From Nitrospirota bacterium (GTDB lineage Bacteria; Nitrospirota; Nitrospiria; JACQCE01), in contig JACQCE010000084.1 in NCBI GenBank assembly GCA_016201765.1, forward strand, positions 1-63,259: a DNA stretch of 63,259 nucleotides, written 5' to 3'. Made by a program: the position numbers and the translations under genes. The notes below the pieces were generated by a model. It was not told where the DNA came from. It saw nothing but the letters and a program-made list of their open reading frames with translations, and did not search any database. Shown piece after piece: positions 43,417 through 56,116 of the stretch. Numbering within the stretch: position 1 is the first letter of the stretch; the number at the start of each line of letters is the position of its first letter.

Positions 43417-43491
43417 TGGTGGGCGATGCTGGTATCGAACCAGCGACCTCTTGCGTGTGAAGCAAGCGCTCTACCACTGAGCTAATCGCCC
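43417..43491 (-). tRNA. tRNA-Val (anticodon CAC), CCA encoded
   Basis: Manual cloverleaf: GGGCGAT TA GCTC AGTGGTA GAGC G CTTGC TTCACAC GCAAG AGGTC GCTGG TTCGATA CCAGC ATCGCCC A CCA. Confidence 0.9.
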
Positions 43492-45847: not shown

Positions 45848-45945
45848 ACACGCCACCGAAAGAGCAAACCCGTCGTAAGGCGGGGACGCAGAGCCACCGG
45901 TCCCGGACCGCCCTCACGGGATCGAGGAGCCGCCGAAGTGGATGT
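45848..45945 (+). promoter_or_regulatory. c-di-GMP-I (GEMM-I) riboswitch
   Basis: GCAAACC-CGTC-GTAA-GGCGG-GGACGCAGAGCCACCGG...GCCG compares with the Vc2 core GGCAAACC-hairpin(GAAA)-GGGACGCAAAGCCUCCGG. The P2 stem CCCGTC/GGCGGG is capped by a GNRA loop and a P3 stem follows. Confidence 0.75.
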
Positions 45946-53015: not shown

Positions 53016-53837
53016 CTATTGCGCCAGATCGTGGTGCTCCCGTCTCAGCCAAAAGAGCACCAGGGGGAAATAACCGGCGTAGAGCAACAGCTCCAGCAGC
53101 GAGGGATGGGAGCGGTAGCCGAACAGACCGGCCACCAATGAGCCGAACAGGCTGCGCTCGCTCAAGAGCCAGGAGCTGTCCCAAAACGGTTCGATGAGCG
53201 GCGGCAGCAAACCGGCGGCAATCAACCGCCCGCCGGCCGAAGAGAGCATGCCCGCCGCAATGAACAGCAGCAGCACGCCCGTGACTTTGAAAAACAACCG
53301 GAGATCCAAATGGCCGAACCCCTTGAAAAAGAGCCAGGCCATCACAATCCCGACAGCCACCCCCACCAGGCCGCCAATTACCTGAAGTGAGATATCAGCC
53401 ACCGGACCCGCCTGCAGGACCAATCCCCAGAGAAACAGGACCGTCTCCACCCCCTCACGGAACACCCCGACAAACGCCAGCGTTCCCAACGCCCAGAGCT
53501 GATGGCGCGCCAGTGCTTGATCCGCCTTGCTGAGGAGTTCTCCCTTGATTTCCCTGGCATTATGGTGCATCCAGACCACCATGTAGGTCAGCACCGCCAC
53601 GGCCGCCAGGAGAATCAACGCATCGAGCAGATCCTCCCCGATGCCCTCGACAAATCTCGTCGCCAGGCTGGATGCCCCGGCAAAGAGGCCGCTGGCCAGG
53701 ACGGCCAGCAGCGCGCCGCCAAGAATGTATCGAAACTCGTGTTGATGCCCGATTTTCCTCAGATAAGCCAGTAAAATCCCGACGATCAACGCCGCTTCAA
53801 TCGTTTCCCGCCACGTAATGACAAATGTTGCCAGCAT
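53016..53837 (-). CDS. FTR1/EfeU-family high-affinity iron permease
   Basis: Two REXXE motifs (WRETIEAAL, FREGVETVLF) and 7 TM. Confidence 0.85.
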   Translation of the reverse strand: MLATFVITWRETIEAALIVGILLAYLRKIGHQHEFRYILGGALLAVLASGLFAGASSLATRFVEGIGEDLLDALILLAAVAVLTYMVVWMHHNAREIKGELLSKADQALARHQLWALGTLAFVGVFREGVETVLFLWGLVLQAGPVADISLQVIGGLVGVAVGIVMAWLFFKGFGHLDLRLFFKVTGVLLLFIAAGMLSSAGGRLIAAGLLPPLIEPFWDSSWLLSERSLFGSLVAGLFGYRSHPSLLELLLYAGYFPLVLFWLRREHHDLAQ

Positions 53838-53861
53838 ATCAGGGTATCCGTTCTGTTAAGG

Positions 53862-54209
53862 TTATTCGATGACCAGACGTCCAGTGGCCGTCTTGGGATT
53901 GAATTCTCCAAAAAACTCATAGACGCCCGGTTTCAATGCCGGCAACCGGATGGTGATGGTGCCTCCCCCCCGGACCAGCTTTTCCCGATTCAGCGCCGTG
54001 CTTTCAAACTCCTCAGGTGTGGCATCCGCGTTGGTCACCTTCAACACAATCGGGCTTCCCGCCTTTGCCCGCACTTCAGTCGGCTCGAAACGATGCCCAC
54101 GGATCGTCAGCGCCAGTTCCTGATCGGCCCAAACCGGCGCCGCAGCCGCCATGCCAACACAGATTGCGACCGCCCCGCCCCACCACGCCATCCGCCCCGC
54201 ACGCGTCAT
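53862..54209 (-). CDS. periplasmic cupredoxin-like protein
   Basis: Signal peptide AICVGMAAAAPVWA, then LTIRGHRFEPTEVRAKAGSPIVLKVTNADATPEEF...GVYEFFGEF. Start chosen after the fur stop. Confidence 0.6.
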   Translation of the reverse strand: MTRAGRMAWWGGAVAICVGMAAAAPVWADQELALTIRGHRFEPTEVRAKAGSPIVLKVTNADATPEEFESTALNREKLVRGGGTITIRLPALKPGVYEFFGEFNPKTATGRLVIE

Positions 54210-54213
54210 CCCG

Positions 54214-54681
54214 TCACCCCCGTTTGCCCGATCCATGGTCATGACAATCCGCGCACAGGCCGTACAACTCCAACTTGTGCCGCCGGATCACAAAACGGTG
54301 GCGGCGGGCGACCTGTTCCTGCAACCGTTCGATATGCTGGTTCTCAAACTCGGTGATCTCCCCGCACTGGGTGCAGATCAGGTGATCATGGTGGTGCTTG
54401 TCGTAGACGGGATCATACCGGGTGTGGCCGTCGCCGAATTGGCGCGCTTCGGCCAGCCCGAAGCGGCAGAACAACCCCAGCGTCCGGTAAATGGTCGACA
54501 ACCCGATCCGGCTCTCCTTTTTCAACACTTCCCGATAGATTTCCTCCGCCGTGACATGGCGGGCCATGCCGACAAACACCTTGAAAATCTCCTGCCGTTG
54601 CCGTGTAAACCGCAGATGATTCCTGGTGATCTGGGTCTTGAGCAGCGTGGGCTGGACCGGGGCGCGCATGTTGATTCGCAT
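54214..54681 (-). CDS. fur: Fur-family transcriptional regulator
   Basis: Winged helix (RFTRQRQEIFKVF...HVTAEEIY..., STIYRTLGLF). Metal sites HHHDHLICTQCGEITEF and CADC. Confidence 0.85.
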   Translation of the reverse strand: MRINMRAPVQPTLLKTQITRNHLRFTRQRQEIFKVFVGMARHVTAEEIYREVLKKESRIGLSTIYRTLGLFCRFGLAEARQFGDGHTRYDPVYDKHHHDHLICTQCGEITEFENQHIERLQEQVARRHRFVIRRHKLELYGLCADCHDHGSGKRG

Positions 54682-54690
54682 GTTTATTAT

Positions 54691-54717
54691 TGAAAACGAT
54701 TTCTATTATCGTTTTCA
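54691..54717. promoter_or_regulatory. Fur-family operator-like palindrome
   Basis: TGAAAACGAT-7 nt-ATCGTTTTCA. The minus strand reads ...GAAAACGATAATAGAAATCGTTTTC with a GATAAT hexamer. It sits directly downstream of the fur -10 element. Confidence 0.55.
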
Positions 54718-54745
54718 TTTTATCGGCTCCATCGTCCCCTGTCAA
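54717..54745 (-). promoter_or_regulatory. sigma70 consensus promoter of the fur-cupredoxin-FTR1 operon
   Basis: Minus strand reads TTGACA-17 nt-TAAAAT. Confidence 0.6.
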
Positions 54746-55044
54746 GCCCGGCCCGCCTGCTGTAATCCCAAAATAGAAATGTCCGCTTTTGCCACGATAG
54801 AAATGTCCTCATTAGCCCTCAGACAACCGTCCCTCCAGAGAATGGTAGGGTTTGAGGGTAGAGGGATCAGATCAATCTCTGGGGGCAAGATCGAGAGGAA
54901 AACGGACCTCAGATAACGCTTGGTAGAATTTTATATCCTGGAAAAGAATGGACCGTCGCTTACGATAGATTAAAAACCGGACATTTCTACTTTGGGAGGA
55001 ACAGGACATTTCTAATTTGGTAGTACAAGCCCGGCCCGCCTGCT
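54743..55044. mobile_element. 264-bp non-autonomous insertion (54762-55025) flanked by 19-bp direct repeats
   Basis: Direct repeats CAAGCCCGGCCCGCCTGCT at 54743-54761 and 55026-55044. Terminal inverted repeats CCAAAATAGAAATGTCC / GGACATTTCTAATTTGG. TAGAAATGTCC occurs twice at each end (54774, 54798; complement at 54979, 55004). Low G+C and no credible ORF. Confidence 0.7.
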
Positions 55045-55072
55045 TGACACCCGAAACAATCCTCGCTACTAT
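55044..55072 (+). promoter_or_regulatory. sigma70 consensus promoter of ispB (very short leader)
   Basis: TTGACA-17 nt-TACTAT. The ATG at 55082 lies 10 nt after the -10 element. Confidence 0.6.
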
Positions 55073-55081
55073 GGAACGCCC

Positions 55082-56116
55082 ATGACGCCCCCGTTTGCCG
55101 ATTCGCCCCGGCTTGCCCCCTCCACCGCCGGCTTTGCCAACATCGATCAGGTCTGGGAGGCGTGCCGGGAGGATTTACAGGCGCTGGAGGGCCGGATCCG
55201 CTGCGCCATCGATTCCAACGCGCCGATCATCAACCACGCCGCGAGCTACCTCTTTTGCAGCGGCGGCAAACGCATCCGGCCGCTGCTGCTGATCCTGTCC
55301 GCGCGGTTGTGCAACGAGCGGGAGCGCCAGGACCGTCTCCTGCTGCTGGCCAGCGCGGTCGAGTACATTCACACGGCCGCCCTGTTGCACGACGACGTCC
55401 TGGACGACGCCGCCATGCGCCGGGGCCGCGAGACGGCCCGGCTCCTCTGGGGGAACAAGGCCAGCATCCTGGTCGGCGATTATCTCTATGCCCATGCCCT
55501 TGACCAGGTCATCGCGCTGGGCAACACCGCCATTCAGGCGGCGCTGGCCGAAACCTGCCGGAGCATGGTCGAGGGCGAAGTGCTGCAGCTCTCCCAGCGC
55601 CGCAACGTCAACATCAGCGCCGGCGATTACGTGAAGATCATCGACCACAAGACCGCCTGTCTCATTTCGACGACCTGCATGCTGGGCGCCCTGCTCGACA
55701 GCGCGGCTCCCGCCAAAAAAGCGGCGCTGGCGCAATTCGGCCGCCACCTGGGCATCGCCTTTCAACTGTCGGACGACGCCCTTGATTACAGCGCCAGCCA
55801 GCACAAGCTTGGGAAGGCGCTCGGCCAGGATCTCTACGAGGGCAAGATCACGCTGCCGCTGTTGCACCTCCTCTCGGCCTGCACCCGCGAGGAACGGACC
55901 GTGGTGGAACAGATCATCGAGCGGGGCGAGACCCCCGCCCATGATCTCGATACGATCCTGCGCCTGATGGAGCGCTATCAATCGGTGGCCTATACGCTTG
56001 AGGAGTCCCGCCGATTTATCGCCCTGGCGATCGAAGAGCTCCGAGCCTTCCCGCCCTCCCCCTACCGGGACGCCCTCGAAATCGTCGCCGACTACGTGGT
56101 TTCCCGTGACCATTAA
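55082..56116 (+). CDS. ispB: polyprenyl (octaprenyl/heptaprenyl) diphosphate synthase
   Basis: First DDxxD LLHDDVLDD and second FQLSDDALDY. GKRIRPLLL. Confidence 0.85.
   Translation: MTPPFADSPRLAPSTAGFANIDQVWEACREDLQALEGRIRCAIDSNAPIINHAASYLFCSGGKRIRPLLLILSARLCNERERQDRLLLLASAVEYIHTAALLHDDVLDDAAMRRGRETARLLWGNKASILVGDYLYAHALDQVIALGNTAIQAALAETCRSMVEGEVLQLSQRRNVNISAGDYVKIIDHKTACLISTTCMLGALLDSAAPAKKAALAQFGRHLGIAFQLSDDALDYSASQHKLGKALGQDLYEGKITLPLLHLLSACTREERTVVEQIIERGETPAHDLDTILRLMERYQSVAYTLEESRRFIALAIEELRAFPPSPYRDALEIVADYVVSRDH

Follow-up and report, generated by a model that had tools for sequence, protein, structure and literature searches.

The window analysed in this work, that is, the whole stretch of 63,259 nucleotides, belongs to an uncultured groundwater bacterium whose nearest named IspB homologues are from Nitrospirota and share about 50% identity with its own. 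Two genes, coding for a regulator of the Fur family and for an IspB-like polyprenyl (octaprenyl) diphosphate synthase, are transcribed away from each other, and the spacer between them embeds an insert flanked by the two promoters (Table 1). A consensus promoter scan retrieved two sites, versus 0.4 expected. The scan and the relatives both agree with the earlier note on this DNA, which had described a divergent pair of consensus -35 hexamers 15 bp apart, each with a 17-nt spacer and a good -10. As the note had also stated, the duplication that flanks the insert preserves both -35 boxes, and both -35/-10 pairs are intact in the window: the fur -35 shares its last base with the first base of the left duplication copy, a 1-nt overlap, and the ispB -35 begins directly after the right copy.

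Table 1. Features of the fur-ispB region, with positions given in the window.
Feature	Position	Strand	Remark
fur-family regulator gene (PF01475)	54214..54681	-	
Fur-box-like palindrome TGAAAACGAT-N7-ATCGTTTTCA	54691..54717	.	conserved in L122-L125
fur promoter TTGACA-17-TAAAAT	54717..54745	-	consensus scan; conserved in relatives
Left 16-bp target-site duplication copy AGCCCGGCCCGCCTGC	54745..54760	.	single copy in L122
Non-autonomous miniature element, TGT...ACA, 267 bp	54761..55027	+	without transposase gene
Tips of the element, TGTAATCC / TGTACTAC			
Left terminal inverted repeat, IRL type, TGTAATCCCAAAATAGAAATGTCC	54761..54784	+	faces fur
Two presumed transposase-binding motifs TAGAAATGTCC, left end	54774-84, 54798-808	+	24 nt start to start
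Two presumed transposase-binding motifs TAGAAATGTCC, right end	54979-89, 55004-14	-	25 nt start to start
Right terminal inverted repeat, IRR type, TGTACTACCAAATTAGAAATGTCC on minus strand	55004..55027	-	faces ispB
Right 16-bp target-site duplication copy AGCCCGGCCCGCCTGC	55028..55043	.	
ispB promoter TTGACA-17-TACTAT	55044..55072	+	consensus scan; conserved in relatives
ispB-like polyprenyl (octaprenyl) diphosphate synthase gene (PF00348)	55082..56116	+	

The Fur-box-like palindrome abuts the fur -10 hexamer with a 1-nt overlap and lies in the native region, outside the element; its conservation at this position suggests that fur may be autoregulated. Downstream, and overlapped by fur, there is a cupredoxin gene, followed by an FTR1 iron-permease gene (53016-54242). 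At the start of fur, a 12-bp tandem duplication (CGCATGTTGATT / CGCATGTTTATT, 54665-54688), absent in L122-L125, creates an additional ATG upstream in the same frame, so that the N-terminus reads MRIN-MRAP... rather than MRA... On the opposite side, the ispB ATG (55082) lies only 9 nt past the -10 hexamer, as it does in the relatives (region 55067-55084); this, in turn, would imply an ispB mRNA that is leaderless or nearly so.

An exact 19-bp direct repeat, CAAGCCCGGCCCGCCTGCT, occurs at 54743-54761 and at 55026-55044, with no third match in the 63-kb window, even when up to three mismatches are allowed. Furthermore, the motif TAGAAATGTCC has exactly four matches in the 63 kb, two per end of the insert and in inverted orientation; the expectation from shuffled sequences is 0.27, and four matches were reached in none of 100 shuffles. 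These four copies, about 24-25 bp apart at each end, had been recognized in the earlier note and are confirmed by the window scan, as is the AT-richness of the insert, with a GC content of 0.41-0.52 inside versus 0.6-0.7 in the flanking genes. The terminal inverted repeats, previously given as 17 bp, are present but extend over 24 nt, with a complementarity of 88%.

The exact limits of the element follow from its tips. The first tip is TGT (54761-63) and the last is ACA (55025-27), and in both cases 13 nt separate the extremity from the outer TAGAAATGTCC; since the tip of the whole family is a TGT placed 13 nt before the outer motif, the element spans 54761-55027, i.e., 267 bp rather than the 264 bp first proposed, and the duplication is 16 bp long. 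The repeat reads 19 bp as the CA (left) and the T (right) of the target equal the terminal CA and the first T of the element; the three extra repeated bases are a chance identity with the element tips. Thus, the exact 19-bp repeat does exist, but the duplication made by the insertion, as read also from the empty site of L122 described below, is of 16 bp.

A metagenome collection was scanned for the reconstructed empty site, the 27-mer TGTCAAGCCCGGCCCGCCTGCTTGACA, and a single exact match was retrieved, on the metagenome contig L122. This contig shares 94.4% identity over 1385 columns with the window deprived of positions 54761-55043, and harbors, besides both promoters and the same Fur-box-like palindrome, the 5' part of fur as well as ispB, whose product is 96% identical to the window IspB (P0001). 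Four more relatives, L123, L124, L125, and L126, whose IspB sequences are 91%, 88%, 65%, and 67% identical to that of the window, respectively, have an annotated gap upstream of ispB of 118, 79, 117, and 133 bp, versus 400 bp for the window spacer. Of the gene preceding ispB in L124, the contig end leaves only a fragment of 37 residues; the gap is 117-133 bp where fur is complete. The back-to-back hexamers TGTCAAG-N-CTTGACA are kept in L123-L125, and in L126 the hexamers are further apart.

The empty site, together with the short spacers of the relatives, implies that the compact promoter pair is ancestral and the insert lineage-specific; judged from these comparisons, the window spacer carries an insertion that occurred in this lineage. 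The long spacer is therefore not shared by the relatives (the spacers of L122-L126 are all short), and the claim that removal of the element restores the ancestral promoter pair finds its match in the exact empty site of L122. A matching empty site was found for the window element only, and none was seen in the contigs of four groundwater metagenome runs holding the strain, where rare variants may be missed.

A scan of a genome collection for two TAGAAATGTCC motifs 11-16 nt apart retrieved at least 120 loci (L001-L120). Those listed come from Acidobacteriota, Nitrospirota, Planctomycetota, Gemmatimonadota, Patescibacteria, Legionella, Acinetobacter, and others, and many lie at contig ends, as expected of repeated mobile DNA. 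Elements delimited by paired inverted ends measure 1.4-1.7 kb and contain one gene each, of 420-470 codons, whose products match the NCBIfam transposase model NF033594 (ISNCY) with E values from 1e-94 to 1e-135 and show a weaker similarity to IS481 transposases; a PDB sequence search with a related transposase gave no match. At every end of the full-length elements, TGT lies exactly 13 nt before the outer motif, and the motif spacing across 147 ends, among the matches listed, is 24-26 nt. Setting the limits at TGT/ACA, and with element termini extrapolated from BLAST, the duplications measure 15 bp in L041, L076, L100, and L030, and 16 bp in L065, L002, and L051. The left end of the window element is of the IRL type of the closest full-length relatives (L002, L007, and L046), and the right end is of the IRR type.

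These features correspond to those of the IS1202 family, ISTde1 subgroup, formerly ISNCY/IS1202 group (Siguier et al., bioRxiv 10.1101/2022.12.17.520857; Harmer and Hall 2023, PMC10132070). Members of the family have TGT/ACA tips and, near each end, an extra internal binding site in a Tn7-like fashion (PMC10132070); they fall into three subgroups separated by duplication length, ISTde1 being the one with 15-17 bp (bioRxiv 10.1101/2022.12.17.520857; PMC10132070), and the ISTde1 hosts include Nitrospira, Acidobacteria, Gemmatimonadetes, and others (PMC10132070; bioRxiv 10.1101/2022.12.17.520857). The window element shares with this subgroup the TGT/ACA tips, the imperfect repeats of about 24 nt (about 24-26 bp are expected, which the 24 nt fit), the second internal motif, the 16-bp duplication, and the host range; it differs in that ISTde1 members encode an IS1202-group DDE transposase, whereas it is only 267 bp long and has no transposase gene. 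The placement in ISTde1 is based on duplication length and end architecture.

Its ends, regarded in the earlier note as typical of multi-site transposase binding, do match the internal and terminal sites of IS1202-family ends (PMC10132070). The unusual transposition or site-specific mechanism that the note had considered for the long duplication is instead not needed: 15-17 bp is the published hallmark of ISTde1, reproduced here on full-length copies, and a duplication length that is a known family signature requires no new transposition chemistry. The element is thus a further member of a known family.

No transposase homologue was found in the element or elsewhere in the 63-kb window, nor was a second copy of the element found in the window. 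A search for other copies, proposed in the earlier note, found the interior (54811-54969) at this locus only, at a depth equal to that of the flanks, in the four metagenome runs holding the strain. Probing the 120 listed loci with the element by blastn matched only its ends of about 50 nt and never the interior; this interior, of about 160 bp, shows a weak similarity, up to about position 110, to the subterminal parts of full-length copies, the likeness being faint past the first 55 nt or so of each end. As to an autonomous partner, full-length transposase-encoding relatives do exist in many phyla, but none of them can be assigned to the same genome; the same metagenomes contain abundant contigs with related ends, including one of 1568 nt with both ends 1333 nt apart.

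We infer that the element descends from a full-length IS by a simple internal deletion and is a non-autonomous, apparently single-copy derivative. As the element lacks a transposase gene, the transposase of a full-length relative would have mobilized it in trans. The label "MITE-like" is partly justified: the element resembles bacterial MITEs in being small, non-coding, and intergenic, with terminal inverted repeats and the duplication of its parent family, but only one copy is detectable in the four runs, and MITE families usually have multiple dispersed copies. The word MITE is absent from the text of bioRxiv 10.1101/2022.12.17.520857 searched by term. Ends of this kind also delimit another short element, of about 258 bp, at 5398-5655 of L075, from an Acidobacteriaceae MAG; this element has a single motif at the right end, and its duplication is not detectable.

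According to these data, the insert is very probably a MITE-like derivative of the ISTde1 subgroup that entered by cuts staggered by 16 bp between the two -35 hexamers. In the scenario that we depict, an internally deleted IS would have kept both 24-nt repeats and both TAGAAATGTCC pairs and lost its transposase gene, and would have been mobilized by the DDE transposase (NF033594) of a full-length relative. The staggered cuts would have fallen in the 15-bp gap between the divergent fur and ispB -35 hexamers, and repair would have duplicated AGCCCGGCCCGCCTGC. The fur core promoter (-35, spacer, and -10) is retained with 15 bp of native DNA upstream of it, and the ispB core promoter with 16 bp, and the two promoters now lie 283 bp further apart; what is lost is their proximity and the joint palindrome TGTCAAGC-N11-GCTTGACA. 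The position of the insertion is probably not random, a statement that we make with less confidence than the classification, since the duplications of many members of the group adjoin the upstream edge of a sigma70-type -35 hexamer, and here such a hexamer lies on both sides.

This pattern emerged when the flanks (70 nt) of 144-145 independent ends, from the 120 loci listed plus the window, were read outward. Among the matches listed, 23 ends have a TTGAC whose first base is at outward position 17, and in 35 ends it falls at positions 15-18; these four positions account for 35 of the 51 TTGAC occurrences in the 70-nt flanks, the other positions averaging 0.24, and no position exceeded 3 in 1000 shuffles. 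The inverse orientation of TTGAC gave no peak in the same flanks. Overall, a TTGACA-like hexamer is located 14-18 nt (mode 16) from the tip, directly past the duplication, in 42 of the 145 ends listed (about 29%), examples being L008, L023, L058, L074, L103, and L116. In the window, the IRR side has the modal register (16 nt, then TTGACA), and on the IRL side the hexamer is 15 nt away.

When these 42 ends were aligned on the -35 hexamer alone, an unselected TAnnnT appeared exactly 17 nt downstream (T in 29, A in 32, and T in 33 of the 42). Moreover, a -10-like hexamer follows 21 of 33 IS-adjacent TTGAC, versus 6.4% of the 1469 TTGAC in the same loci (p ~1e-17). The outward full promoter-like pattern is in register at 30 of 141 ends, versus 0.22 per position elsewhere, and 28 of these 30 have an outward ORF start within 200 nt. 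The preference is mostly on the IRR side (11/32 IRR ends versus 2/19 IRL ends) and is independent of a TGTCAA element tip (22/73 versus 20/72); the idea that a target TTGACA acts as a pseudo-end, mimicking the IRR tip ...TTGACA, is weakened accordingly, as elements with other tips behave equally.

L010 (1209-2778) and L053, from two Acidobacteriota, share similar promoters (TTGACA-17-TAGCCT, then atag.cgtggtc), into which the insertions occurred in the same register with opposite element ends; the orientation is thus not strict. L043 (1137-4374) harbors a tandem of two distinct full-length elements, 1608 and 1613 bp long, with one and the same 17-bp target, CCCGGCCGCTGGTGAAG, on both outer sides and in between; this indicates that a regenerated target was hit more than once. 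L093 carries two copies of one element.

We consider it somewhat more probable than the contrary that ISTde1 ISs, including the miniature copy, select sigma70-type promoters, with one cut at the upstream edge of the -35. If so, the element would land over the UP-element region, leaving the core promoter intact, and the selection could be directed by promoter-bound RNA polymerase or sigma, in analogy with XerC-bound dif; alternatively, the transposase itself could read the -35 hexamer. Residues 15-52 of the L046 transposase, an N-terminal HTH, show a sub-threshold match to sigma-70/ECF region 4 (E 9e-4, 18.9 bits versus a cut-off of 42.9). Sigma region 4 is the -35-binding domain, and these HTH families are all related; the match probably reflects a generic HTH similarity and represents only a lead on -35 reading.

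The comparison with dif concerns the ISAba32/ISAjo2 subgroup of the same IS1202 family, which shares the end motif (TAGAAATGTCC ends are present in L029 and in the viral L133, L134, L138, L140, and L142) and likewise places its insertions at a constant distance from DNA sites bound by protein, dif and pdif. The differences are that its duplication is of 5-6 bp, placed 5 bp from the XerC arm, versus 16 bp beside a promoter for the window element, and that no dif-like site is present at the latter. In L133, L134, L138, L140, L142, and L029, 5 nt separate ISAba32-type ends (TGTAACTCC / TGTTATTCC) from dif-like sites (..TTCGCATAATGTG..ATTATGTTA..), which reproduces the published XerC-side targeting. 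The viral contigs, a small independent set, served as a positive control in which the outward reading used above recovered the published dif-site targeting of ISAba32-type ends; in the same set, 4 of about 8 other ends have a -35 hexamer at positions 17-18.

The same IS1202-family derivative might instead have been inserted without any targeting, with only those copies persisting that spare genes and core promoters. We regard this as unlikely, though far from negligible. About 70% of the ends listed lack an adjoining -35 hexamer at the duplication, as do the verified full-length insertions L065, L030, and L076, so that what we describe is a preference and not a rule; purifying selection, moreover, would enrich intergenic sites. 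No target is reported in the searchable papers on the long-duplication IS1202 groups, which do not mention promoters as targets, and Harmer and Hall (PMC10132070) found none for the long-duplication group, whereas here the duplication adjoins a sigma70 -35 at about 29% of the related ends listed. Survivorship could enrich real promoters over stray hexamers, but it cannot explain the phasing: the peak at a single nucleotide position, the unselected TAnnnT at exactly 17 nt from the hexamer, and the tandem of two different ISs on one regenerated target in L043 are left unaccounted for.

A miniature Tn7-like or Mu-like element, or a derivative of a casposon, appears very improbable. Tn7 and its TnsB share with the window element the TGT/ACA tips and an 8-bp terminal segment followed by several repeated transposase-binding sites; casposons also make long duplications, of about 14-15 bp. 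However, Tn7 and Mu make duplications of 5 bp versus 16 bp here, Tn7 relies on a multi-protein machinery with dedicated target selectors, and the full-length relatives of the window element are single-gene ISs of about 1.5 kb, without tnsA/C or cas1. In favor of the Tn7-like reading, the IS1202-family transposase has been modelled on TnsB (PMC10132070).

It is even less credible that the 19-bp repeat is an att core and the insert the remnant of a tyrosine or serine recombinase element, with TAGAAATGTCC as arm-type sites. The exact flanking repeat and the motifs repeated on both arms would fit, but the insert has true terminal inverted repeats with TGT/ACA tips matching the ends of DDE-transposase ISs, and no recombinase gene is located nearby in the window. 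In addition, the flanking repeats of the other copies differ in sequence at every site, and are therefore target duplications rather than a conserved core. The att-site, casposon, and Tn7-like models were all rejected on the structure of the ends, the genes present, and the length of the duplication. Finally, that the 400-bp spacer and its repeats are ancestral, with no insertion at all, is hardly conceivable: no evidence for it was found apart from the four metagenome runs holding the strain, which show the occupied site only, and it is refuted by the empty site of L122 and the short spacers of four relatives.

As to the consequences of the promoter-adjacent insertion, fur, the iron regulator, and ispB, an essential isoprenoid gene, are uncoupled from a compact shared control region while their core promoters are kept, and the locus represents a clean natural case for the contribution of the DNA upstream of the -35. 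The family-wide promoter-adjacent pattern, unreported in the searchable literature, could matter more than the element itself. If homing to the upstream edge of the -35 is real, it would tell us what the long-duplication IS1202 groups target, would reveal a safe-haven strategy of bacterial transposons that is directed at promoters, and would provide a system in which one protein suffices to insert DNA at a constant distance from promoters.

No RNA family was retrieved within the element when the region and the entire window were scanned with Rfam. Elsewhere in the window, a c-di-GMP-I riboswitch is located at 45853-45937 (+), with 45.6 bits versus a gathering score of 35, and a tRNA-Val(CAC) gene at 43417-43491 (-).
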